A stretch of 8,521 nt of DNA from the IMG/VR virus record IMGVR_UViG_2617270966_000007, one strand, 5' to 3'. This stretch comes from a virus (lineage: Duplodnaviria; Heunggongvirae; Uroviricota; Caudoviricetes). Below the pieces are notes generated by a model. It saw only the letters and a program-made list of their open reading frames with translations, ran no database searches and was not told where the DNA came from. Both the position numbers and the translations under genes were made by a program. This document shows, piece by piece, positions 1 through 8,521 of the stretch (position 1 is its first letter; every line of letters begins with the position of its first letter).

Positions 1-387
1 TGTCTGGTCACGCAGCTGGTTGTCGCAGTGCCAGCACAACACCATTGCGCCGGTACCATAACGGTGAATGACGGTTTCGCTGTGATGATAATCGCCGTGT
101 GGCCACTGGCAGGATTTAATATGGCGCAACAGCCAGTCAGACAATGCACCAGCACCACCAGCAGCACGAATCACCCGTGCGTTACTGAAAAACGGCAGCA
201 ATGTTTTGTCTTCCACCAGCGGCTGGCGAGCGGCAGGAACGACCCCGGACGGCAGATTACGCATGCTTTTTGGTTCCGGCTCCACCAGTATTCTGCCGTT
301 ATGGAATGCTGACATTGATTCACGGCCTGGCTTAACGATAACCAGACCGAGTTCCGGTACCAGAACAGGTCGAAGTAATACCCGCAC
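1..387 (-). CDS. Partial CDS running off the left edge (about 129 codons in window): hypothetical phage protein with a Cys/His-rich putative zinc-binding (HNH-like) segment; possibly YdfU/DUF968-like
   Basis: Manual translation of the minus strand in the frame with codon first bases at 387, 384, ... gives an uninterrupted frame to position 1 (VRVLLRPVLVPELGLVIVKPGRESMSAFHNGRILVEPEPKSMRNLPSGVVPAARQPLVEDKTLLPFFSNARVIRAAGGAGALSDWLLRHIKSCQWPHGDYHHSETVIHRYGTGAMVLCWHCDNQLRDQT...). GTG at 387-385 lies 4 nt after GGAGG (396-392) and 2 nt after the upstream stop; alternative ATG at 315-313. Not in the ORF track because no stop is in the window. Family assignment is a guess from composition and the position downstream of hok. 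Confidence 0.5.
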   Translation of the reverse strand, partial: MRVLLRPVLVPELGLVIVKPGRESMSAFHNGRILVEPEPKSMRNLPSGVVPAARQPLVEDKTLLPFFSNARVIRAAGGAGALSDWLLRHIKSCQWPHGDYHHSETVIHRYGTGAMVLCWHCDNQLRDQT

Positions 388-388
388 A

Positions 389-667
389 TTACCTCCAGAT
401 CCGTTGCTGGAATGTGCGGGACGGACGCGCTGGCCGTTCTGAGTAAGGGAGCCTGACGGAGATTATCCAGTGACGGTAGTCGAGGCTAAGGGCTTTTTTA
501 ACCTCGCATCCGCGCCTGCGGTAACACTGAATGAGCCATTCAGCCTGTTCTTCGGTGCAGGGGTCGTGCTGATACCAGTCAGATTTGAATGCATGAGAAC
601 GCCGCCCGTGCCTGCTGGCAGGGGCGGCAGAGTTATCCGAATTGTAAAATTTGGTATCGTGCGCCAT
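389..667 (-). CDS. Small hypothetical protein (92 aa) downstream of hok; position resembles rem of Qin-type prophages
   Basis: ORF-track frame 389..796 trimmed to the internal ATG at 667-665, because the first 43 codons are encoded by the hok terminator hairpin and U-tract. The TAA stop (391-389) is immediately followed by the start of the next gene. No clear Shine-Dalgarno. Confidence 0.4.
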   Translation of the reverse strand: MAHDTKFYNSDNSAAPASRHGRRSHAFKSDWYQHDPCTEEQAEWLIQCYRRRGCEVKKALSLDYRHWIISVRLPYSERPARPSRTFQQRIWR

Positions 668-739
668 CTGTTTTCTCTGCTGGCGCAGCAGGTGCCAGTT
701 GTTCAGGCTGACGGATGGATTGTAAACCAGAACGACCAG

Positions 740-764
740 AAAAAACAAAACCCGCCGAAGCGGG
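740..764 (-). terminator. Rho-independent terminator downstream of hok
   Basis: On the minus strand: CCCGC-TTCG-GCGGG (5-bp GC stem, UUCG tetraloop; plus 751-764) followed directly by TTTTGTTTTTT (plus 750-740), about 70 nt after the hok stop codon. Confidence 0.7.
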
Positions 765-834
765 TTAAGTGCGGGTGCGTTGAGGATGCCTGACACATCA
801 GCGGTGGCGAGGGATTTCTCCCCCGCCGGGTCTC

Positions 835-990
835 TTACTCCTCAGGTTCGTAAGCTGTGAAGACAGCGACCTCCGTCTGGCCGGTTCGGATTCGTACCTC
901 GCAGAGGTCTTTCCTCGTTACCAGTGCCGTCACCATGACGGTTAAACAGATGACGATCAGGGCGATTAGCATCGCCTTTTGCTGCTTCAT
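835..990 (-). CDS. hok: Hok/Gef-family membrane toxin (type I toxin-antitoxin toxin), 51 aa, HokD/RelF-like
   Basis: Translation MKQQKAMLIALIVICLTVMVTALVTRKDLCEVRIRTGQTEVAVFTAYEPEE has the Hok signature (single transmembrane helix then LTRKDLCEVRIRTGQTEVAVF) and closely matches HokD as recalled. SD AAGGAG lies about 9 nt upstream of the ATG at 990-988. Confidence 0.9.
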   Translation of the reverse strand: MKQQKAMLIALIVICLTVMVTALVTRKDLCEVRIRTGQTEVAVFTAYEPEE

Positions 991-1047
991 AGCCTGCTTC
1001 TCCTTGCCTTTCGGCACGTAAGAGGCTAACCTACGTGTGTAGAGCAT
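835..1047 (-). CDS. Mok-like in-frame upstream extension of hok (70 codons)
   Basis: ORF-track frame begins MLYTRRLASYVPKGKEKQA and continues in frame into Hok. Chromosomal mok reading frames (for example MokC) are N-terminally extended, in-frame versions of hok. Whether this one is translated is unknown. Confidence 0.4.
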   Translation of the reverse strand: MLYTRRLASYVPKGKEKQAMKQQKAMLIALIVICLTVMVTALVTRKDLCEVRIRTGQTEVAVFTAYEPEE

Positions 1048-1470
1048 AGATATGGCCTCAGATTAATGTTAAGCGTCTTGCAGGACGCGTAATGTTAACT
1101 GGGGCTTTTCTCTATCTGCCTTTGGTGTTCATGCCTGAGACAGATAGCCTCAAGCACCCGCAGCCATTCTACTTAACTCCCGTCACCTCGCCAATATGAA
1201 ATCAATCAGAAAGGCGATCCATAAGAACAACAGCAAGGCAATAAATTGCCATTACAGCAGCAATAGCCAGCGCACATTTGAGAACCAGCACCACAACCTC
1301 CTGTATTGGACGTACACCAGTCCTGATAAATATGAGGCTGTCTCGTCAGTGATTCAATACAACTATTGGGTATAGTTTCTGTGATTTTGTTCTGTAGAAA
1401 TGGAACACAACAACCAGTCACCACCAGCACTTCTTTAAATACGCCAAGTCCGACGCAAGCTAACCTTCTA

Positions 1471-1494
1471 GTCCGCTTTGAGCGAAAAGCGGAC
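1471..1494. repeat. Palindromic hairpin GTCCGCTTT-GAGCGA-AAAGCGGAC (copy 1 of 2)
   Basis: 9-bp perfect stem with 6-nt loop, about 60 nt downstream of the HAD stop. Shares the stem GTCCGCTT/AAGCGGAC with the element at 2937-2960. No U-tract on either strand. Confidence 0.5.
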
Positions 1495-1554
1495 GTTGGA
1501 AGTTTAAAACTCGCGAACTACTCAGCGTCCATTGATGCGTATTGTGTAACGTGA

Positions 1555-2199
1555 TTAACCACAGATGATATTGAAACGTTCTCCGGAAATCTTGACCATA
1601 ATGTCAGACAGCTCGCTGACGGCATGGGCTTCAGATGATCCCAGAGCGTCAGGCTGAACAGCTATTACCGAAGCTCCACTTGCCAGCCCTGCTTTTATAC
1701 CCGCAGATGCATCCTCAAATACCACGCATTCACCAGGCTCAAGGCCCAAAGCCAAAGCTGCTTTGATGTAACCCTCGGGACTTGGTTTTCCCGTCATTAC
1801 ATCTTCTGCACACACCATTACTATGGGTAAGGGGAGATTAGCCGCTTTCATCCTGTTTTCGGCAAGCATTCTGCCTGCAGAAGTAACAAGTGCCCAGCTA
1901 TCCGGTGGCAGTTTTGATAAGAGTGCAGCGGCCCCTTTTACTTCAGTAACGCCTTCTGTCGTGTTGATTTCAACCTCTTCGAGTGAGGCCGCGATTTTAT
2001 TGGTTTTCTCACCTGCACCAATAAAATGCGTCAGTGTATCAATCGTTTGCCGCCCGTGTGCGTAAGCAATCACAGCCTGAGTATCAAGACCGTATTCTGC
2101 ACAAAAATCTCTCCAGACGCTTTCCACTACGGCTGTTGAATCAACCAGCGTACCGTCCATATCGAATAAAAAACCCTTAGCGTTGAATATCATTGCCAT
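1555..2199 (-). CDS. HAD-superfamily hydrolase, subfamily IA (sugar-phosphatase / beta-phosphoglucomutase-like)
   Basis: HAD motif I FDMDGTLVDS near the N-terminus, motif III lysine in GKPSPEGY, motif IV FEDASAGIKAGLASG. The second ATG (2193) has better SD spacing (AGGA, about 6 nt) and may be the true start. Lies 24-30 nt downstream of the Nudix stop, so likely co-transcribed. Confidence 0.85.
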   Translation of the reverse strand: MAMIFNAKGFLFDMDGTLVDSTAVVESVWRDFCAEYGLDTQAVIAYAHGRQTIDTLTHFIGAGEKTNKIAASLEEVEINTTEGVTEVKGAAALLSKLPPDSWALVTSAGRMLAENRMKAANLPLPIVMVCAEDVMTGKPSPEGYIKAALALGLEPGECVVFEDASAGIKAGLASGASVIAVQPDALGSSEAHAVSELSDIMVKISGERFNIICG

Positions 2200-2222
2200 T
2201 CCTTAATGGTTGCAGAAGAAAG

Positions 2223-2861
2223 TTAATCAAACCATGTTTTTTCATCACCTTTCGCTACTCTCAGGCTGACAGCAATCTGCTCAGGCACAATTCTTGAAAG
2301 CGACAATTCAGGCAGGTCGTTGACATCAAAAAAATCAGCATCGAGTGACTCATGGCTGATTGACAGGCTGCCACCTACTTCTTCACAGAGAAAAATCAGC
2401 TTGTAAACATGCCAGGGTAAAGGCGGATGGCCGTGAAGATTACGATCCCAAACTCCCAATAGTTTAGTCACTCTGACTTTTAATCCGGTTTCTTCTTCGA
2501 CCTCTCGACGCACAGCTTCAGAAGGTGTATCTCCAACATCTGCCCATCCGCCAGGAAGACTCCATAATCCATCTGCAGCCTCTTTCACCATCAGAATACG
2601 ATTATTACGCAGGATAAACGCACGCACATCTGTTTTGGGCGTCGCGTAACCCGTTTCCGATACATGAAACAAATCATTGCGGCTAATATCAAACTGCGAA
2701 CTCAGCAGTCCAGCGGCAATTTCACGCAAGGCTTCATAGCGTTCCTTGTCAAAGACGTCTTTTGAATAGGTCAGGCCTGACTGCGCGAGGGCATTTAGTC
2801 TCTGGGCAACAAAAATAAGCTTTTCTTGGGTCAACACTTCAGACATGTTTTTCATCTTCAT
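2223..2861 (-). CDS. Nudix hydrolase with an N-terminal extension domain (ADP-ribose pyrophosphatase-like architecture)
   Basis: Nudix box GWADVGDTPSEAVRREVEEETGL (residues 105-127, plus 2481-2549) fits G-x5-(E/D)-x7-REVxEExGL. About 100 aa of N-terminal domain precede it. Start is ambiguous among ATGs at 2861, 2855 and 2846; none has a strong SD. Confidence 0.85.
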   Translation of the reverse strand: MKMKNMSEVLTQEKLIFVAQRLNALAQSGLTYSKDVFDKERYEALREIAAGLLSSQFDISRNDLFHVSETGYATPKTDVRAFILRNNRILMVKEAADGLWSLPGGWADVGDTPSEAVRREVEEETGLKVRVTKLLGVWDRNLHGHPPLPWHVYKLIFLCEEVGGSLSISHESLDADFFDVNDLPELSLSRIVPEQIAVSLRVAKGDEKTWFD

Positions 2862-2936
2862 TTATGTATTCAGAGTTCCTGTTAAGGATACTGCTCAATT
2901 CAATGAAGAATAACAAATGCATCTGGCACCTGCTAT

Positions 2937-2960
2937 GTCCGCTTCTGGCACAAAGCGGAC
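2937..2960. repeat. Palindromic hairpin GTCCGCTT-CTGGCACA-AAGCGGAC (copy 2 of 2)
   Basis: 8-bp perfect stem with 8-nt loop, about 68 nt downstream of the 141-aa gene stop and upstream of the Nudix gene. Same stem as 1471-1494. Confidence 0.5.
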
Positions 2961-3028
2961 AACCACGCTAGCTCTACCCTGTGCCACAAAATGTCAATTT
3001 GCATCTGAACTAATGCACTTTAATCTCG

Positions 3029-3451
3029 TCACTTCAATAAATACCGAACATCACCCTGATAAAACGACAATATGCGCTGCATAACTTCACTCTTCCGGCA
3101 CTCGCGACAGATTATGTTCATACGCCTGTCGTAGCGGCGTATTTCTCCGTCGGGTAATGTCCAGATAAGGTCAGGATCAACCACAGATGGTTTCTTCAGA
3201 TTTGCCCTTGAGAGTTTTTTGCGGGCGTTTTGCCAGTCCTTACGCGCCTGTTCAGACGGGAATAACCCGTAAACAGAGTTGTATACATCGCCACTGGCAA
3301 CCAGCTCTCTGGCGAGAACACTCATCAGATATCTTGTCGCACCTGTCTTGGCTTCCAGTTGCCGCAACGTCTCGCGACCGCTCAGACGTACAAGTTCAAC
3401 AACCTGCCCTTTAATTTTTTCCCGCTCTTCTTGTGTAAATACTTTTGCCAT
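3029..3451 (-). CDS. Hypothetical phage protein (140 aa), translationally coupled to the upstream 256-aa gene
   Basis: ATG at 3451-3449 (MAKVFTQEEREK...) preceded by GGAGG at about 7 nt. The ORF-track start at 3466 is a TTG inside the coupling region. Basic C-terminal half (RRYDRRMNIICRECRK). No family recognised. Confidence 0.6.
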   Translation of the reverse strand: MAKVFTQEEREKIKGQVVELVRLSGRETLRQLEAKTGATRYLMSVLARELVASGDVYNSVYGLFPSEQARKDWQNARKKLSRANLKKPSVVDPDLIWTLPDGEIRRYDRRMNIICRECRKSEVMQRILSFYQGDVRYLLK

Positions 3452-3466
3452 AAGCGCCTCCGGCAA

Positions 3467-4237
3467 TCACTTTTCCGATACAACACGGCGGGAAGAATCA
3501 GTAATCTGTCGAACAATATCCCGGTGCTTGTTCAGCTCCCGCAGCGCGGCGCAGACTCGCTCCCACTTCTGAACATCACTTTTCGCCCTGCGCAGCGCCA
3601 GGTTTGCCCTGCGAAGGGACGGAAAAATCAGCTCATCTGCTTGCGTTTCGGTAAACGATGGCAACGGCTGCACAATGTCCGCCACAGTTTCTGTTTTAAT
3701 TTCTTCCTGTGTTGCGGCTTCCCGGACTGGTAACGCAGCACCTGCTGGCTGAGGAAAGGCCTTACCATCACTTTCCGTTACCAGCGCGGCTTTCGGCTCT
3801 GCTGGTAAATTATCGCCCGGCATGCAGTAACGAAATTTACCGTTCTGATTAACGCGTGCCAGCCGCCCCGTTGCGGTTACCACCGCCAGCGTGGAAGCAA
3901 CCTTGCGAGTACTGACACCGAACTTACCCGCCAGTTCCTCACACGTTTTAGCCCCATCCTGACCGATAAACTCAATCATCATGTCTGCGGTAACTTTTTG
4001 TTCGACCTCCCCGGTCAGCATATCCTGTGCTTCAGATTTTACTGGCCGCTCTTCGGTTACCCGGGATTCACCTTCGCCAGCCAGAAACCAGGTGTGACCA
4101 GTTTTATCAACGACGCCATTTCTTTTGAGTTCCCACAGCTCGTTGACAGCCTCTTCACGACTGATTCCAAGGCGAGCTGCCACCACATGTGAAGAGGCTT
4201 TTTTCAGTGCTTTCAGTGCGTCAGATACGGTTTCCAT
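3467..4237 (-). CDS. Hypothetical phage protein (256 aa) with two tandem winged-helix-like DNA-binding segments
   Basis: Two segments resembling wHTH domains (SSHVVAARLGISREEAVNELWELKRNGVV and KTCEELAGKFGVSTRKVASTLAVVTATGRLARV). GGAGG SD about 8 nt before the ATG at 4237. Starts 21 nt after the DnaC-like stop. Confidence 0.65.
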   Translation of the reverse strand: METVSDALKALKKASSHVVAARLGISREEAVNELWELKRNGVVDKTGHTWFLAGEGESRVTEERPVKSEAQDMLTGEVEQKVTADMMIEFIGQDGAKTCEELAGKFGVSTRKVASTLAVVTATGRLARVNQNGKFRYCMPGDNLPAEPKAALVTESDGKAFPQPAGAALPVREAATQEEIKTETVADIVQPLPSFTETQADELIFPSLRRANLALRRAKSDVQKWERVCAALRELNKHRDIVRQITDSSRRVVSEK

Positions 4238-4258
4238 TAAAATTTCCTCCGGACAAAA

Positions 4259-5005
4259 TTACTTCACAACCCTCATATTGCTGACATTTGGACGCCAGCT
4301 ATCCCAGTTAAACGTCACCCATCGACCACCGTTCATGGTCATGCGGTCCATAATCCTCTCACCAAGAAGCGTACTCATTGCGGCATGATTCAGGTTTGTT
4401 AACATCCCGACACTGCACAGTGATGCTGTCCGGCGATCAATTATCTGGTGCAATACCACCTGCTCGTTTTTCGTCTCCCGCTGAACGCCTATTTCATCCA
4501 GGACCAGCAAATCAACCCCGCAAAGCTCCTGTAAAAATTTTTCCCCGGATTTGCCGTTGTCGTAGCTGTCATGCAACACGCTCATGACGTCAGACACGGT
4601 GACGATAATCACGCTGCGCCCCTTCACCATCAGCCGGTTGCCCATCGCCGCTGCAAGGTGATTTTTCCCGGTGCCGGTTTTACCGCTGAACACAAAATTC
4701 GTGCACCCGGTCATCAGTTCGTCAGCTATGGATTTGGCCTGGCTCAGCGCGTATTTTTGCCCGTCGTTCTGCACCTGATAATTTGCAAACGAGCATTTGC
4801 TGTGCAGAGGCTGGATGCCCGAACGATTCAGGATTTTTTCCACCCGCAACTGGCGATTCTGGCGGTTAATCTCCTCGCTGCGTTTTCGTCCTTCAGCAAG
4901 TTGCCATTCCCGCCACTCCTCCACCGTCCGGTACGGTGGAACCGACCCCTGTGGTGCAAGTCTGCGAATACGTTCAAGAACCCCAACTGCCGCAATGTTT
5001 TTCAT
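4259..5005 (-). CDS. ydaV: DnaC-like helicase loader / IstB-type AAA+ ATPase (phage replication protein, YdaV-like)
   Basis: P-loop FSGKTGTGKNHLAAAMG and Walker B DLLVLDEIG. Length 248 aa. Starts 7 nt after the O-like gene stop with a G-rich SD. Symbol assigned by synteny and length match to the Rac prophage ydaU-ydaV pair. Confidence 0.85.
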   Translation of the reverse strand: MKNIAAVGVLERIRRLAPQGSVPPYRTVEEWREWQLAEGRKRSEEINRQNRQLRVEKILNRSGIQPLHSKCSFANYQVQNDGQKYALSQAKSIADELMTGCTNFVFSGKTGTGKNHLAAAMGNRLMVKGRSVIIVTVSDVMSVLHDSYDNGKSGEKFLQELCGVDLLVLDEIGVQRETKNEQVVLHQIIDRRTASLCSVGMLTNLNHAAMSTLLGERIMDRMTMNGGRWVTFNWDSWRPNVSNMRVVK

Positions 5006-5011
5006 GACACG

Positions 5012-5974
5012 TCACCCCCTGAATCCCGGCGGTATTTCAGTGTCCGGTTCAGAAATGTGATTCACGCAACGCTGCGCAGGCGAACGCCCCAGGCGGATAA
5101 CCAGTTCATCCCATTTTTCCCGGAGTTTTGCCGGACTCATGATGTTTTTTACCCAGAACGAATCCCGCTGGAGACGCCCAAACATTTCACAAATTTGTCT
5201 GTGAGTTCTGCCATCCAGCATCCGCATTGTGCGAACGTCATTGGCCCATGCTGTCCAGTTGGGTTCTTTCGGTCTAGTGATCTCGCCATCATAGCTGGCC
5301 GCCTGCTCGTAAAGACTCACGATTCGTCCCCAGATCCACTGTGCGCACACCAAATCTTCCTGACTTCCCCACTGGCGTTTTTTCGCACTGAACACAACCG
5401 CGTCAGGGTGTCGGGTTAAAAAATCCTGTTCAGCCGTCTGCGGGTCCGGTTGCGAAGCGTCCGGACAAGAAGATCTTTTATCTGACGGTTCAGGTTTTAA
5501 TACTGACGGATCGGGGTCAATCATCGCCCCCCTAATCGGCAGTTTTTTATCAACAGTTGATCCATCAAAATTTGACGGGTCAACCGTTGAGGGGGCAAAA
5601 TTTGACGGGTCAACTGTTAACGGGTCATTTTTTGCCGGGCTAATTTTTCTTTTCGGTTTATATGACTCACGCGCCGCCGCCGCAGCTGCTTCGAGTTTTT
5701 CCACATTAAGCCGATAGATATTGCTTACATTACGCCCACCGACCTTACGCTCTTCCTTCGTCAGCCAGCCCTCTTTCGCCAGTTCTGCAATAGCCGATTT
5801 CACTGTGGATTCACTTCTTGCACCGATCTGACGCCGGATAGTTTCAATGGCAGGCCATGACACACCCTCGTCATTGCTGTAGTCTACAAGACGGGCCATA
5901 ACCGCCACCCTGGATAAGATCATGCCGGTGAAGGCGCACCCTTCCCAGACAAGACCATGAAGCTTGCTGCTCAT
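5012..5974 (-). CDS. Phage replication initiator (O-like / replisome organiser, YdaU-like) with N-terminal wHTH and an internal TVDPSNF repeat linker
   Basis: The ORF track starts at a GTG (5989); the first ATG is at 5974 (MSSKLHGLVWEG...) with a GGGGG SD. N-terminal HTH-like segment (VSWPAIETIRRQIGARSESTVKSAIAELAKEGWL). The central region encodes PLTVDPSNFAPSTVDPSNFDGSTVD from direct DNA repeats. Sits immediately upstream of the DnaC-like gene. Confidence 0.8.
   Translation of the reverse strand: MSSKLHGLVWEGCAFTGMILSRVAVMARLVDYSNDEGVSWPAIETIRRQIGARSESTVKSAIAELAKEGWLTKEERKVGGRNVSNIYRLNVEKLEAAAAAARESYKPKRKISPAKNDPLTVDPSNFAPSTVDPSNFDGSTVDKKLPIRGAMIDPDPSVLKPEPSDKRSSCPDASQPDPQTAEQDFLTRHPDAVVFSAKKRQWGSQEDLVCAQWIWGRIVSLYEQAASYDGEITRPKEPNWTAWANDVRTMRMLDGRTHRQICEMFGRLQRDSFWVKNIMSPAKLREKWDELVIRLGRSPAQRCVNHISEPDTEIPPGFRG
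5544..5621. repeat. Iteron-like direct repeats (30-bp period) with adjacent AT-rich stretch inside the O-like gene: putative replication origin
   Basis: CAAAATTTGACGGGTCAACCGTTGA (5566-5590) and CAAAATTTGACGGGTCAACTGTTAA (5596-5620), plus a partial third copy TCAACAGTTGA (5550-5560). Each contains a TCAAC-N-GTTGA inverted core. Followed by the AT-rich run cattttttgccgggctaatttttcttttcggtttatatga (5626-5665). Confidence 0.45.
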
Positions 5975-5996
5975 AAAACCCCCGAACACCGTGCTT

Positions 5997-6422
5997 TTAG
6001 TGCATCACCACAGCATTCCCTGCCGGGCCGCCGCGATTCATCTGGTCATACAAAACAACCGCTGACGCAACAAAATCGCCGACATCCTTCCCCAGCCGAT
6101 CCCGCCGTTCGACAATCTCCCGGTAATACTCAGAGCTGTGACTGCGCATACGGGCCACCAGCAGAGGCGGCATTGCCTTTTCGATCGCCGGTAACAGAGC
6201 CTGAATTTTTTCAACAGCATCAGGGGTGTCTTTATCCAGCCAACGGAAAATTTTCTGTGTATTACGGGCCAGGGCTTCCGGATGGCTGTCGTCGTACAGT
6301 TCAGGGAACGTCATCCCCAGTTCGAAATAAGTCCGGGCTATTTCAGCTGCAGGAACTTTCTCACCATCAGGGTATGCCCAAGCATTCATCGCCATGCGGA
6401 TGTGCTCATGTTTGATTTTCAT
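5997..6422 (-). CDS. ydaT: YdaT-like prophage protein (CII-analogous regulator / reported toxin family)
   Basis: 141 aa, N-terminus MKIKHEHI, located between the Cro-like gene and the replication genes as ydaT is in Rac. The start overlaps the upstream Cro-like gene by 17 nt. Family call rests on synteny, length and recalled N-terminal similarity. Confidence 0.65.
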   Translation of the reverse strand: MKIKHEHIRMAMNAWAYPDGEKVPAAEIARTYFELGMTFPELYDDSHPEALARNTQKIFRWLDKDTPDAVEKIQALLPAIEKAMPPLLVARMRSHSSEYYREIVERRDRLGKDVGDFVASAVVLYDQMNRGGPAGNAVVMH

Positions 6423-6729
6423 GAATCATTTGCCTCTTGATGCTTCGGGTATGATCGTTTTCGTCATTTGGTTGCTTCATCGACATATTCTGCGAATAAC
6501 ATGACGAGCGTCGTAAGTATGTCCAATCAACATCAGGACGAAGTTCTTCACACAGGACACCACCTTTTGTTGCTCGTTCAATCGCAGGACATCTCTCAGC
6601 AGGCAACTGACGTACACCTTTGATCCATTGATTTACGCTTGGAGGAGATACACCTAAAAGCCTAGCCATTGCTGATTGCCCACCGACAACAGCACAAGCT
6701 CGTTTGAATGAATAGTTATCTTTTTTCAT
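6406..6729 (-). CDS. Cro-like / YdaS-like HTH DNA-binding protein (first gene of the rightward early operon)
   Basis: ATG at 6729-6727 (MKKDNYSFKRACAVVGGQSAMARLLGVSPPSVNQWIKG...) with GGAG about 8 nt upstream; HTH in QSAMARLLGVSPPSVNQWI. Divergent from the repressor gene, downstream of the predicted PR. The ORF-track start at 6750 would lie upstream of the predicted transcription start. Confidence 0.75.
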   Translation of the reverse strand: MKKDNYSFKRACAVVGGQSAMARLLGVSPPSVNQWIKGVRQLPAERCPAIERATKGGVLCEELRPDVDWTYLRRSSCYSQNMSMKQPNDENDHTRSIKRQMIHENQT

Positions 6730-6756
6730 CGAATGAACTCCAAAAAACACGCAACA

Positions 6757-6824
6757 ATATTAGGCTTAGCCTAATGCAATTGTCAATAGGCTAAGCCTAA
6801 TCCATCGAGAGTAGGGATTGCCTA
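6757..6824. promoter_or_regulatory. OR-like operator cluster (three 13-bp operators) with divergent PR (minus strand) and candidate PRM (plus strand)
   Basis: Operators TAGGCTTAGCCTA (6761-6773), TAGGCTAAGCCTA (6787-6799), TAGGGATTGCCTA (6812-6824), centres 26 and 25 bp apart. PR on the minus strand: -35 TTGACA (6786-6781), 18-bp spacer, -10 TAATAT (6762-6757). Candidate PRM: -35 TTGCCT (6819-6824), -10 GACTAT (6842-6847), which would start transcription at about the repressor ATG. Confidence 0.6.
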
Positions 6825-6853
6825 ACGCGATGCGCATAGGAGACTATTAAGCA

Positions 6854-7330
6854 ATGCTTAGTGGTAAAGACTTAGGCCGAGCGATAGAGCAGGCCATTAA
6901 CAAAAAAATTGCATCAGGAGCCGTCAAATCAAAGGCGGAAATCGCACGTCATTTCAAAGTCCAACCACCATCAATCCATGACTGGATTAAGAAAGGTTCG
7001 ATAAGTAAAGACAAACTTCCAGAACTATGGCGTTTCTTTTCTGATGTGGTTGGTCCAGAGCATTGGGGGCTTAACGAATACCCCATACCAACCCCATCCA
7101 CTTCAGATACAAAAAGTGAACTTTTAGACATAAACAGCCTTTATCAAGCCGCCTCTGATGAAAAAAGAGCAATTGTGGCTTTCCTCTTATCTGGAAATGC
7201 TACGGAGCCTAGTTGGGTTGATCATGACGTTCGCGCCTACATTGCCGCAATGGAAATGAAGGTAGCTAACTATCTGAAAAATCAAGAATCAAAACGGAAA
7301 AGCCAGAACATCACCAAGACAGGAACTTAA
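6854..7330 (+). CDS. CI-type prophage repressor (XRE-family HTH, 158 aa; RacR-like by position and length)
   Basis: N-terminal HTH (SKAEIARHFKVQPPSIHDWIKKG). Divergent from the Cro-like gene across the operator cluster, and flanked on both sides by the same 13-bp palindromic operators. No obvious S24 peptidase Ser/Lys domain in the short C-terminal part. Confidence 0.8.
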   Translation: MLSGKDLGRAIEQAINKKIASGAVKSKAEIARHFKVQPPSIHDWIKKGSISKDKLPELWRFFSDVVGPEHWGLNEYPIPTPSTSDTKSELLDINSLYQAASDEKRAIVAFLLSGNATEPSWVDHDVRAYIAAMEMKVANYLKNQESKRKSQNITKTGT

Positions 7331-7344
7331 ACTTATATGGTCCG

Positions 7345-7366
7345 ACGGGAAATTCCTAGTTCCCGT
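7345..7366 (+). terminator. Possible weak terminator hairpin after the repressor gene
   Basis: ACGGGAA-attcctag-TTCCCGT (7-bp stem) followed by TAGTTAACT; the U-tract is poor. Confidence 0.25.
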
Positions 7367-7425
7367 TAGTTAACTCCTACTACCTCTCCCACAAACCATC
7401 ACCTATTAGGTCGCGCCCAGATTAT

Positions 7426-7467
7426 TAGGCATAGCCTATTGACAAGTAATTAGGCATTTCCTATAGT
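7426..7467 (+). promoter_or_regulatory. PL-like early promoter with two operators (OL-like)
   Basis: -35 TTGACA (7439-7444), 17-bp spacer, -10 TATAGT (7462-7467). Operators TAGGCATAGCCTA (7426-7438, abutting the -35) and TAGGCATTTCCTA (7451-7463, covering spacer and -10). Mirror image of the PR arrangement. Confidence 0.6.
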
Positions 7468-7648
7468 TTTCCCATACCAACCCATCCCGTCCCACACAAT
7501 ACAGGGCAATACCTCGAGTTACCAGGCAGTGGTCAGGGGTTAAGTAGCCAGCCCGATGCGTAAGAACATGACGGCAGGGTTCAACTTTAATAACTATGCA
7601 GCAGGTTTTTGTTCCGCTACCCCGGCGTTAAGGGGAAATGAGGTCAGC

Positions 7649-7801
7649 ATGGATACTATCGATCTTGGCAACAGCGAATCTCTGGTATGTGGTGTGTTCC
7701 CAAACCAGGACGGTACGTTCACCGCGATGACGTATACCAAAAGCAAAACGTTTAAAACCGCAGCTGGCGCGCGTCGCTGGTTAACCAGAAACACTGACTG
7801 A
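7649..7801 (+). CDS. Small early-left protein (50 aa), YdaF-like (DUF1391-type)
   Basis: ATG at 7649 (MDTIDLGNSESLVCGVFPNQDGTFTAMTYTKSKTFKTAAGARRWLTRNTD) preceded by GGGGAAATGAGG with GAGG at 5 nt. The ORF-track start at 7556 lacks an SD. Family assigned from recalled similarity to Rac ydaF. Confidence 0.6.
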   Translation: MDTIDLGNSESLVCGVFPNQDGTFTAMTYTKSKTFKTAAGARRWLTRNTD

Positions 7802-7812
7802 TGAGGTTGACG

Positions 7813-8214
7813 ATGGAATTTAAAGATTTACCAGTACCATTCCAGGAAATGGCATCGAATGTGGTTCGCTCTCAACTGGCGACTCTTGACCTGAGTACTG
7901 TAGAAAAGGAAACCATCGATACTATATCCGGTAACGTGCGTCGTGCCTTTATAGGTCTGTATGAAGAGAAGCGCCTATTCGGCGGACAGAATTCGCCTGA
8001 AAACAAGAATCAAGCAAATGATGAGAAGCTGAAACACATTATCGCCTTACTTTTGGAAGACGCAAAACGTCTACAGCAACTGGAACCAAATGCAGGCACA
8101 GAGGCCCGCATTTGGATTGCCATGAAATCACTCAAATGTGAAAGCAGTGATTATTTCAAAACAACAATTAAAACTACTCAACTTTCGGGAGAGCTACTGA
8201 AGAAATTGCCATAA
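7813..8214 (+). CDS. Hypothetical early-left protein (133 aa), no recognisable domain
   Basis: ATG at 7813 (MEFKDLPVPFQEMASNVV...) with GAGG 6 nt upstream, 11 nt after the upstream stop. Predicted mostly helical and charged. Last gene before the IS1 insertion. Confidence 0.6.
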   Translation: MEFKDLPVPFQEMASNVVRSQLATLDLSTVEKETIDTISGNVRRAFIGLYEEKRLFGGQNSPENKNQANDEKLKHIIALLLEDAKRLQQLEPNAGTEARIWIAMKSLKCESSDYFKTTIKTTQLSGELLKKLP

Positions 8215-8259
8215 GAGCATGGTCTTTCTCTTGTTCTGCAAGATGAGCATTAATACCTG

Positions 8260-8521
8260 GGTAGTGACTCCAACTTACTGATAGTGTTTTATGTTCAGAT
8301 AATGCCCGATGACCTTGTCATGCAGCTCCACCGATTTTGAGAACGACAGCGACTTCCGTCCCAGCCTTGCCAGATGTTGTCTCAGATTCAGATTATGTCG
8401 CTCAATGCGCTGAGTGTAACGCTTGCTGATAACGTGCAGCTTTCCCTTCAGGCGTGATTCATACAGCGGCCAGCCATCCGTCATCCATACCACGACCTCA
8501 AAGGCCGACAGCAGGCTCAGA
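8260..8521 (-). mobile_element. IS1 insertion sequence, partial (right end with terminal inverted repeat; continues beyond window)
   Basis: Terminal inverted repeat GGTAGTGACTCCAACTTACTGATAG starts at 8260 and resembles the IS1 IR as recalled. The interior encodes the InsB C-terminus on the minus strand. Confidence 0.9.
8275..8521 (-). CDS. insB: IS1 transposase InsB, C-terminal part (CDS continues beyond the window edge)
   Basis: Translation ...[71 protein letters not shown] matches the IS1 InsB C-terminus as recalled. The stop codon lies inside the terminal IR. Confidence 0.9.

Follow-up and report, generated by a model that had tools for sequence, protein, structure and literature searches.

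A probable RacR-repressed early-left operon of the Rac/Qin type, interrupted by IS1, in an Escherichia coli prophage

Which operon starts at the leftward promoter of this prophage, and what has the IS1 element next to it interrupted? The window, that is, the whole stretch of DNA analysed, comprises 8,521 nucleotides of a tailed-phage genome (IMG/VR record IMGVR_UViG_2617270966_000007). A sequence-only reading had described a PL-driven operon encoding a YdaF-like protein and an uncharacterised 133-residue protein and cut off by IS1. The positions it gave for the promoter, the leader, both genes and IS1 were all verified (Table 1), and both reading frames are genuine genes rather than chance open reading frames, as judged from pN/pS and dN/dS. 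The operon is of a type already described and carries an ordinary IS1 insertion; the region had been described correctly and is not unusual. Its identity as a dicBF/Rac-type operon had been overlooked. Very probably, the region forms the beginning, next to the promoter, of a lambdoid early-left operon that is repressed by RacR and belongs to the Rac/Qin "dicBF type" of E. coli. The same gene order (repressor, DUF1391 gene, slot genes, DicF, dicB/ydfD, exonuclease, xis and int) is found in many E. coli prophages. As one more copy, disrupted by an insertion sequence, of a prophage operon that is already well described, the locus matters little; two widespread small prophage proteins encoded in it are still without an assigned function.

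Table 1. Positions of the features of the early-left region in the window
Feature	Position	Strand	Remarks
racR-type repressor gene, 158 aa	6854..7330	+	cI analogue controlling the operon
Candidate RacR operator, OL-type	7424..7439	.	ATTAGGC-ATA-GCCTAT; abuts/overlaps the -35 hexamer
PL-like sigma-70 promoter	7439..7467	+	TTGACA-17-TATAGT; 11/12 consensus positions
Second candidate RacR operator	7449..7464	.	ATTAGGC-ATT-TCCTAT; covers the spacer and part of the -10 hexamer
Transcribed leader, 175 nt	7474..7648	+	between the predicted start and the DUF1391 gene
DUF1391 (YdaF/YdfA family) gene, 50 aa	7649..7801	+	ATG 7649; GAGG Shine-Dalgarno 5 nt upstream
133-aa accessory gene	7813..8214	+	product 100% identical to RefSeq hypothetical WP_001339605.1
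N-module of the 133-aa gene	7813-7986	+	codons 1-58
C-module of the 133-aa gene	8020-8136	+	codons 70-108
3' remnant of convergent 92-aa ORF (WP_000358771.1, phrog_18692)	8174..8259	-	27 codons and stop, truncated by IS1
IS1 right end, insB 3' part	8260..8521	-	begins with the terminal inverted repeat at 8260; element incomplete in the window

The repressor scores 246.8 bits with the NCBIfam equivalog model TransRepsrRacR (NF049929, cut-off 200) and is 92% identical to RacR of K-12. The promoter is the best consensus match in the scanned region 6300-8521. Its hexamers predict a transcription start at about 7474, and the near-consensus promoter bears out the earlier placement of the start at this position. 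The description of the operon as PL-driven is likewise upheld: the promoter is the analogue of PL, located just downstream of the RacR repressor gene and overlapped by two predicted operators. At 7425-7439 the upstream operator matches the published RacR consensus, (T/A)TAGGC-n3-GCCTA(T/A) (PMC9638921), perfectly, and the second one, at 7450-7464, has a single mismatch to it. Both belong to a repeat family of five copies, two at the left promoter and three in the racR/ydaS intergenic region. The hexamers and the operator half-sites are invariant in five aligned RacR-type prophages, K-12 Rac included, among which the upstream operator shows one spacer variant. In K-12, ydaF and ydaG are induced 40-70 fold when RacR is antagonised (PMC11014345). 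In the lysogen, RacR would bind the two operators over the -35 and -10 hexamers and keep the promoter silent. Upon derepression, a transcript starting at about 7474 would carry the leader and then encode the 50-residue DUF1391 protein and the 133-residue, all-helical accessory protein. The predicted operator pair at the left promoter lies outside the scope of the cited RacR papers and is useful for annotation.

The first gene product matches the DUF1391 profile of Pfam (PF07151; E=2e-27, 94.9 bits against a gathering cut-off of 27.3), its residues 2-48 aligning with positions 1-47 of the 48 profile positions. This match and an identity of 84% to K-12 YdaF confirm that the protein is YdaF-like; it is 88% identical to YdfA and is assigned to phrog_751. 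The dN/dS ratio of the gene against YdfA and YdaF is about 0.09-0.16, and the AlphaFold model of the protein (pLDDT 81) has a beta-beta-beta-alpha arrangement, for which the AP2/ERF-type DNA-binding fold is a tentative lead. A DUF1391 gene directly downstream of the immunity repressor is also found in K-12 Rac, in K-12 Qin and in more than 30 prophage loci. The only match of the DUF1391 profile in the PDB covers 19 residues of a phage head-decoration protein (E=0.012) and was taken as chance. The in-frame 81-codon reading frame from 7556 was rejected as the true gene; its ATG is AGG in most relatives. Alternatively, translation might start at the invariant ATG at 7568, giving a protein of 77 residues.

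Three known operons can be compared with the window. The dicBF operon of K-12 Qin (dicA, dicBp-ydfA-ydfB-ydfC-dicF-dicB-ydfD-ydfE) also has its repressor gene directly upstream and in the same orientation, and its repressed promoter is followed by a DUF1391 gene, by small promoter-proximal proteins and by the untranslated region of DicF, which in the present case is found in IS-free twins of the window. Published work places the start of the polycistronic dicBF RNA upstream of ydfA and derives DicF from this RNA by processing; for ydfABC no function is known (PMC5069750, PMC10448788). The distal part of Qin in K-12 is also interrupted by an insertion sequence, IS2 in ydfE/intQ. The two operons differ in the repressor, which is RacR in the window and DicA in Qin, and in the leader, most of which is missing in Qin. 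The window has the 133-codon gene and a convergent reading frame in place of ydfB and ydfC, and the 133-residue protein has no similarity to YdfB, YdfC or YdaG. Its IS1 is located upstream of dicF, and its closest relatives have a dicB remnant and then rha, ydaE, racC-like and recE-like genes.

The left operon of K-12 Rac (racR-ydaG-ydaF, convergent sieB, kilS, kilR, ydaE, racC, recE, recT) has a promoter and two operators identical to those of the window and a leader that is 85% identical. Like the window, it contains a DUF1391 gene and a convergent gene reaching into the 3' end of the last gene of the promoter-proximal group, and like the twins of the window it has ydaE, racC-like and recE-like genes further downstream. 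Unlike the window, Rac has ydaG before ydaF and is without the 133-codon gene, its convergent gene is SieB rather than an unrelated 92-codon reading frame, and kilR/kilS take the place of dicF. The PL operon of lambda (OL, PL, nutL, N, ral, sieB, kil, cIII, gam/bet/exo, xis, int) is placed and oriented in the same way with respect to the repressor gene, its operators overlap the promoter, and it too runs towards the genes of recombination, excision and integration. Two operators were recognised in the window, whereas lambda has three; the window has neither an N-like arginine-rich protein nor boxA/boxB, and its first genes are unrelated to those of lambda.

IS1 begins 45 bp after the second gene, as had been stated: the stop codon of the 133-codon gene is at 8214, and the terminal inverted repeat GGTAGTGACTCCAACTTACTGAT starts at 8260. 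A stretch of 81 minus-strand codons matches Pfam DDE_Tnp_IS1 (E=9e-43), and the 262 nt from 8260 to 8521 are 100% identical to many annotated IS1 copies, including copies on plasmids. A complete IS1 is about 768 bp long and is flanked by a target-site duplication of 8-9 bp. Relatives found through an identical RacR, DnaC-like or NUDIX protein are all IS-free, and they include two near-identical twins, L034 and L026, which are 99.98% and 99.95% identical to the window over positions 1-8260. Homology to the IS-free prophages ends exactly at 8259/8260. The empty site in the twins reads ...ATTAATACCTG/GTATGG, and a simple IS1 insertion would show a 9-bp duplication of TAATACCTG. A megablast search with 7900-8521 against 5,426 complete E. 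coli genomes found no place covering at least 80% of the query, and an exact 30-mer across the IS1 junction was absent from GTDB species representatives and metagenome contigs.

The 45 bp between the second gene and IS1 are not a spacer. They are the 3' part of a convergent 92-codon reading frame, which had been overlooked. The remnant translates to GINAHLAEQEKDHALMAISSVALPKVE followed by a stop codon, the C-terminus of the 92-residue product annotated in IS-free relatives, and the reading frame overlaps the last 41 nt of the 133-codon gene. Because IS1 splits this reading frame, the case is not one of an insertion into an intergenic spacer without gene loss. By inserting inside the convergent frame, IS1 would have destroyed it, and for annotation it is this frame that is the actual target of the element. 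The comparison with related prophages lacking IS1, which the sequence-only reading had recommended, shows the convergent reading frame, DicF, rha, ydaE and a RecE-like exonuclease downstream.

The ancestral transcript would have run antisense through the convergent reading frame into a long untranslated region yielding the DicF sRNA, and then into rha, ydaE, the gene in the racC position and the RecE-like exonuclease; its continuation into xis and int is drawn from a further relative only. Rfam gave no DicF match in the window, which ends in IS1. In L034, DicF is situated about 0.57 kb past the insertion point; it scores 76.7 bits with Rfam in the relative L001, and blastn places it downstream in 25 loci, including L034. 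The twins contain only a remnant of dicB, not an intact gene, and the remnant followed by rha is annotated in the related L002 and L025; other relatives carry intact dicB and ydfD. The remnant in the twins indicates that the ancestral operon was already a Qin/Rac hybrid and not a canonical dicBF operon. IS1 insertions are polar, and because of this inferred polarity transcription from the promoter should no longer reach dicF or any distal early-left gene either. IS1 is positioned upstream of dicF and DicF is processed from the promoter-proximal transcript, so that no DicF should be possible from this promoter. On derepression, the DicF, distal kil, recombination and excision functions should no longer come from this copy. 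The earlier suggestion that IS1 separated the distal early-left genes from the operon is thus supported by the twins as far as the recombination genes are concerned, and the excision and integration genes are seen in a further relative.

The chances are about even that the "cut-off" is mainly an effect of assembly, the window being a short draft contig with repeats at its ends, IS1 a simple insertion and the prophage past it intact. The window begins inside a DUF968 gene (position 1 corresponds to 12861 of L034, the gene spanning 12475-13533), which is shared by co-resident lambdoid prophages, and ends 262 nt into IS1; both are multi-copy in E. coli genomes. The left flank is collinear with the IS-free twins, at 99.98%, up to the junction, and the junction occurs in none of the 5,426 complete E. 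coli genomes. An assembly effect would, however, leave the insertion of IS1 at this place unchanged, and the data are compatible with DNA having been deleted or inverted past the element too, since IS1 commonly mediates adjacent deletions. The prophage may have lost DNA to IS1 and may be defective, as suggested earlier, but the view from the window reaches no further than the inside of the element.

Upstream of the two genes of the RacR-repressed operon, the leader is constrained, yet nothing indicates the antitermination site or small RNA that had been proposed for it. Homology starts at 7473, about +1, across prophages of four immunity types, and divergence of the leader is 0-15%, whereas the same pairs differ by 13-58% at synonymous sites of the neighbouring gene, the leader diverging 2-8 times less. 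Such conservation would be expected of a cis-acting regulatory RNA that gates distal transcription by acting as an antiterminator of the nut or put kind, as a site for Rho loading or as a leader-peptide switch. Its first 30 nt are C-rich and G-poor (14 C, 1 G), as in a rut site. The upstream ATG at 7568 is invariant, and its short reading frame keeps frame despite indels or, in K-12 Rac, is closed by a TAA immediately ahead of ydaG. Covariation is seen at one stem pair (C-G, U-G, U-A). An N-like arginine-rich N-terminus is absent from both operon proteins, although the distal genes in relatives sit past the DicF terminator. A regulatory role of this kind is nonetheless unlikely. Direct reading of 7474-7648 by eye revealed neither boxA (GCTCTT) nor a boxB with a 5-bp stem and pentaloop, and Rfam gave no match to the leader at the gathering cut-off or at E<=10. 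The leader does not fold with extra stability, 191 of 200 shuffled sequences folding at least as well (z=+1.6). RNAalifold of the leader alignment produced no convincing structure and almost no covariation (2 of 39 pairs, a covariation term of just -0.39 kcal/mol). K-12 Qin, where homology starts at 7611 and most of the leader is missing, still expresses dicBF, and the apparent constraint could be inflated if recombination gave the leader a history different from that of the gene. The leader also contains a CCCC/GGGG hairpin, the 3' arm of which lies in a purine-rich stretch directly 5' of the DUF1391 Shine-Dalgarno sequence.

That the product of the second gene is identical to a widespread hypothetical protein in RefSeq had been overlooked. 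That the protein has no recognisable family remains correct: Pfam, NCBIfam, PADLOC and solved structures give no match, PHROGs returned families of unknown function only (phrog_1363, E=1e-44), and phmmer against PDB sequences gave E>=0.74. A well-known structural or housekeeping family was not found among the matches. Structure prediction, suggested earlier as a check, yielded an all-helical AlphaFold model of moderate confidence (pLDDT 62.8, about 55 in the C-terminal half), for which Foldseek found nothing at E<1; histone-like helices from the PDB, all at E>1, were dismissed as meaningless. In a comparison of the 133-residue, DUF1391 and 92-residue proteins with known anti-phage defence and toxin-antitoxin proteins, the best PADLOC-DB match was a HerA fragment (E=0.022), and the best NCBIfam matches fell far under their cut-offs.

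In the 133-residue protein, two short conserved modules are fused. Each module is also found at the start of many small early-left proteins whose tails are unrelated, and the gene would have been built by joining the two. The MEFKDLP start is retained when the gene occurs in other contexts; no Pfam family scored above threshold in proteins that have a module in common with the 133-residue protein but end in a different tail. The protein is the product of a dispensable gene in an early "slot", the content of which is variable. The slot was seen to hold no gene, ydfB and ydfC, a 124-codon gene, a 191-codon gene or a convergent 171-codon gene, and elsewhere 106-, 112- or 133-codon genes with differing convergent partners.

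The C-module also occurs outside Escherichia. Two hypothetical proteins, gp10 of the Cronobacter phage phiES15 and gp20 of the Aeromonas phage pAEv1818, are encoded by the first gene after the repressor, in the same PL-proximal position, and share the C-module motif ELKH(V/I)IALLLEDAKR.Q..EPNAGTEARIW. They are 82% and 52% identical, respectively, to residues 70-107/130 of the 133-residue protein. Both are stand-alone proteins of 91-95 residues that start with the motif, whereas the protein of the window has an additional N-module of 58 residues and ends in another tail. Their genes are not preceded by a DUF1391 gene. As in the window, a convergent reading frame overlaps the 3' end of the gene.

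Such an arrangement might mean that the 133-codon gene and the convergent 92-codon frame form one functional two-gene unit, inactivated by IS1, in which the 92-residue protein is a lysogen-expressed exclusion or defence protein and the 133-residue protein its early-expressed counterpart, like sieB convergent to ydaF. The gene convergent to ydaF at this position in K-12 Rac is indeed SieB (E=1.5e-31 in a Pfam scan), and the 133- and 92-codon genes, besides their 41-nt overlap, co-occur in L001, L002, L018, L023, L025, L026, L029, L032 and L034. The convergent genes have in common a conserved upstream region with an AGGAGG Shine-Dalgarno sequence and differ in their coding parts. In phiES15 and pAEv1818 the overlapping convergent frame is of similar length, about 94 codons, but the two frames are unrelated to the 92-residue protein. 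The resemblance of the latter to SieB (PF14163) is positional only, as no Pfam family was found in it at E<=0.1, and it has no toxin-antitoxin or PADLOC match. In the twin, no above-chance promoter was found for the 92-codon frame. A full-length variant of the 133-codon gene occurs with an unrelated, non-overlapping convergent frame of 57 codons, the homology breaking exactly at the stop codon, and the pairing is therefore not obligate. A two-gene unit is on this evidence quite unlikely.

Decidedly improbable is the broader proposal that the stretch from the first PL gene to dicF is a hypervariable accessory slot common to lambdoid phages of Escherichia, Cronobacter and Aeromonas. If it were true, conserved heads (MEFKDLP... 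and ELKHVIALLLEDAKRLQ..EPNAGTEARIW) would be joined to rapidly exchanged tails and paired with exchangeable, lysogen-expressed convergent genes, of which K-12 SieB would be one. The 133-residue protein and the IS1-disrupted 92-codon frame would then belong to an uncharacterised system of exclusion or counter-defence cassettes, and read-through in these N-less phages would be under the control of the leader, a new cis-regulatory element marked by its constraint and its invariant upstream ATG. Taken more widely, the protein heads are conserved, their tails and the convergent genes are exchanged, and the leader varies less than neutral sites do; this pattern could hint at unexplored phage-host or phage-phage functions.

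The 133-codon gene is under purifying selection. That it is no functional gene at all but a side effect of conserved "linker" DNA for recombination between mosaic modules is hardly credible: recombination anchors would yield modules that head many otherwise unrelated reading frames, and the gene is dispensable, but dN/dS in its N-terminal third is 0.03-0.09 (at dS 0.30-0.37), which indicates strong purifying selection on the protein, the C-module has dN 0.11 against a saturated dS of 1.03 in the comparison with phiES15 and similar values with the Aeromonas phage, pN/pS over the full length is 0.21-0.22 against variants of 88-93% identity, and the gene has a good Shine-Dalgarno sequence and a conserved start codon. 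As the product of a genuine slot gene of the RacR-repressed operon, the 133-residue protein might, as a best guess, be made at lytic onset and act as a small helical binder, with a host or a phage protein as its partner. An alternative ATG at 7801 would extend the product of the second gene to 137 residues.

The window is a piece of a Rac/Qin-like E. coli lambdoid prophage, and the region under study is the beginning of an operon whose type is already known from dicBF in K-12 Qin and, in variant form, from K-12 Rac. The gene order that recurs in annotated relatives is repressor, DUF1391, variable small genes, the DicF sRNA, dicB, ydfD, a YdfE/RecE-like exonuclease, xis and int; the racR-ydaG-ydaF...kilR...recE operon of K-12 Rac is a variant of this order. 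According to published work, transcription of the dicBF polycistronic RNA begins upstream of ydfA, from a promoter under repressor control, and no function is known for ydfA, ydfB and ydfC, the genes closest to it (PMC5069750; PMC10448788). The promoter, both ORFs and the IS1 end are all found where the sequence-only reading had placed them, and its main interpretation, an early-left operon interrupted by IS1, is right. The kind of operon and the prophage family are already known, and the proteins are hypotheticals already catalogued. The repressor is RacR: its NCBIfam equivalog score of 246.8 bits exceeds the cut-off (200), and it shares 92% identity with the K-12 protein. The left edge of the window lies inside a multi-copy DUF968 gene common to many co-resident lambdoid prophages and the right edge inside IS1, which suggests a short contig of a draft assembly, interrupted by repeats at either end.

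Features of the window, in high-to-low order
Feature	Position	Strand	Remarks
IS1 terminal repeat	from 8260		45 bp past the 133-aa stop
92-aa ORF, 3' remnant	8174-8257	minus	last 27 codons
133-aa ORF	7813-8214	plus	ATG 7813
DUF1391 gene, 50 aa	7649-7801	plus	ATG 7649, GAGG ahead; Pfam E=2e-27
Leader	7474-7648		175 nt
Predicted RacR operator	7450-7464		1 mismatch; extends into -10 hexamer
Left promoter	7439-7467	plus	TTGACA-17-TATAGT; 11/12 consensus positions
Predicted RacR operator	7425-7439		perfect consensus match; one base common with -35 hexamer
racR, 158-aa repressor	6854-7330	plus	NCBIfam equivalog and K-12 likeness
ydaS/cro-like gene	6406-6750	minus
ydaT	5997-6422	minus
Replication initiator gene	5012-5989	minus
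DnaC-like loader gene	4259-5005	minus
DUF1627 and DUF977 genes		minus	below the loader gene
NUDIX-HAD cargo pair	1555-2861	minus	after DUF1627/DUF977
hok/sok	835-1159	minus	after the cargo pair

Of the five copies of a 16-nt element, three stand in the racR-ydaS interval and two flank the left promoter; the element agrees with the RacR operator consensus (T/A)TAGGC-n3-GCCTA(T/A) (PMC9638921). Both hexamers and both operators of the left promoter are invariant across five RacR-type prophages, including K-12 Rac. The divergent promoter opposite (TTGACA-18-TAATAT, 6786-6757) is PydaST, which has been characterised by experiment (PMC11879457), and in K-12 antagonism of RacR raises ydaF, ydaG, kilR, ydaE and racC 40-70 fold (PMC11014345). 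The proposal that the operon is PL-driven, with the left promoter as a probable RacR-controlled analogue of PL, is therefore well supported. A third and weaker operator element may lie at 7403-7412, some 15 bp ahead of the first left operator, where a further sequence resembling a RacR half-site, CCTATTAGGT, does not vary among five RacR-type prophages.

The IS1 sequence is seen over 262 nt only, up to the window end. Two draft genomes contain IS1-free twins of the prophage, 99.98% (L034) and 99.95% (L026) identical to window 1-8260 in a single collinear block, in which the empty site reads ...GAGCATTAATACCTG/GTATGGTTTTTT, the slash marking the junction. Downstream of the 133-aa gene the twins have a convergent 92-aa ORF (WP_000358771.1; phrog_18692, E=6e-63), which overlaps the final 41 nt of that gene, then a conserved untranslated stretch of about 300 nt and DicF, and past DicF rha, ydaE, a 91-aa gene where racC would lie and a RecE-like exonuclease of 814 aa. 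One relative with the same downstream genes (L025) runs on into xis and int at ompW; a dicB remnant is annotated between DicF and rha both there and in the related L002. Since the window retains the final 27 codons of the 92-aa ORF, IS1 lies within that ORF, about two thirds along, and not in an intergenic spacer. Judged by the twins, it stands about 0.57 kb upstream of dicF and cuts the operon off from its distal genes. Expression of DicF and of the genes beyond it requires the promoter upstream (PMC10448788). Because IS1 insertions are polar, this promoter should now drive the two small genes only. The IS1 junction was absent from 5,426 complete E. coli genomes, GTDB representatives and metagenome contigs. 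The insertion itself is ordinary; it may be a simple one, or DNA beyond it may have been lost.

The DUF1391 family is narrow among the matches listed, which come from Escherichia, Shigella and Salmonella and are all at least 78% identical. The 133-aa protein is a 100% match to the RefSeq hypothetical WP_001339605.1, and about 95 complete E. coli genomes have a place covering at least 80% of 7331-8259, the 133-aa gene included. Its pN/pS is 0.21-0.22 over the full length against 88-93%-identical variants and the dN/dS of its N-terminal 52 codons is 0.03-0.09 at dS 0.30-0.37, which shows that the ORF is a real gene. Searches of Pfam, NCBIfam and PADLOC place the protein in no family, and the PDB sequences include no relative of it, in keeping with the original impression that it bears no recognisable motif. 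Its AlphaFold model is all-helical, with pLDDT of about 80 in an N-terminal helical hairpin and about 55 in the C-terminal half; Foldseek with this model gave no match below E=1. Homology searches showed the protein to be bipartite. Residues 1-58 (MEFKDLP...NVRRAFIGLYEEK) also begin other proteins, about 90-210 aa long, whose tails are unrelated, and residues 70-108 (ELKHIIALLLEDAKRLQQLEPNAGTEARIW) are the extreme N-terminus of many stand-alone 40-140-aa proteins. The latter motif is kept in gp10 of Cronobacter phage phiES15 (dN 0.11 vs dS 1.03) and in gp20 of Aeromonas phage pAEv1818. In each phage the gene is the first one past the repressor, and a convergent ORF of about 94 aa again overlaps it. 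In phiES15 the convergent ORF (95 aa, ~3735-4020, minus) is unannotated; it is homologous to pAEv1818 gp19 (phrog_8894) and is probably a gene missed in that record. Our best guess for the 133-aa protein is an early protein, small and helical, with a host or phage protein as its binding partner.

The contents of the slot between DUF1391 and dicF are highly variable across relatives. The slot may hold no ORF of at least 35 codons (262 nt in L011), ydfB and ydfC, the same pair plus a 124-aa or 133-aa gene with the MEFKDLP head, MEFKDLP genes of 106, 112, 124 or 133 aa with differing convergent partners, a 191-aa gene, or a convergent 171-aa gene. Elsewhere the 133-aa gene is found with an unrelated, non-overlapping 57-aa convergent ORF, the homology breaking exactly at the 133-aa stop codon. 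Given this variability and the 57-aa partner, the 133-aa gene is dispensable and has no obligate tie to the 92-aa ORF. The convergent slot genes of L034 (4410-4688), L024 and L033 differ in coding sequence yet agree in the sequence upstream of it, AGGAGG Shine-Dalgarno included (reverse complement of ...CATTTCACCCTCCTGAGGGTTGGTAATTAAGGAG...), so that conserved DNA bounds the exchangeable cassette on either side. It is improbable that the conserved heads, swapped tails and swapped convergent genes beside PL make up a defence/counter-defence cassette. This swapping next to PL, together with the constrained leader, is the most interesting remainder.

Homology among prophages of four repressor types starts exactly at 7473, one base before the predicted transcription start, which places the leader in the operon module and not in the immunity module. 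In the same sequence pairs the leader diverges by 0-15% vs 13-58% at DUF1391 synonymous sites, a sign of constraint, although recombination can separate the histories of leader and gene. The sequence-only reading had suggested an antitermination site or small RNA here. The leader has no Rfam match at E<=10 and no boxA or boxB, its folding energy is no better than that of shuffles (z=+1.6), only 2 of 39 pairs covary, and K-12 Qin is missing the greater part of it. All of this speaks against an RNA element, and that suggestion is not supported. Its 5' tract is C-rich and G-poor (14 C and 1 G in the first 30 nt), and a CCCC/GGGG hairpin has its 3' arm in a purine-rich stretch just upstream of the DUF1391 Shine-Dalgarno. 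ATG 7568, which does not vary among the 16 leaders aligned, starts an ORF of 27 codons (7568-7648) that is in frame with DUF1391, hence the 76-78-aa products of some gene callers, and that stays open in relatives through frame-preserving indels. It could start a leader peptide or be an alternative start. In K-12 Rac the same ATG opens an 18-codon upstream ORF ending in TAA just before ydaG. The leader may still be regulatory, for instance through Rho loading or a leader ORF.

Elsewhere in the window, a 282-aa ORF (4571-5419, plus) antisense to the replication genes finds no support in the annotation of the relatives and is in all likelihood a chance ORF. The sok of the type I toxin-antitoxin locus scores 114.7 bits in Rfam against a gathering score of 59, and the Hok reading frame lies inside a 70-aa ORF (835-1047). 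The NUDIX and HAD hydrolase genes are cargo within the nin-like region. The identical NUDIX protein, again next to this HAD protein, occurs in a P2-like prophage (L028), beside the toxin-antitoxin pair RnlA/RnlB (L035) and in a Qin-like element that is degraded and rich in IS elements (L027); the NUDIX-HAD pair looks like a mobile two-gene moron cassette.
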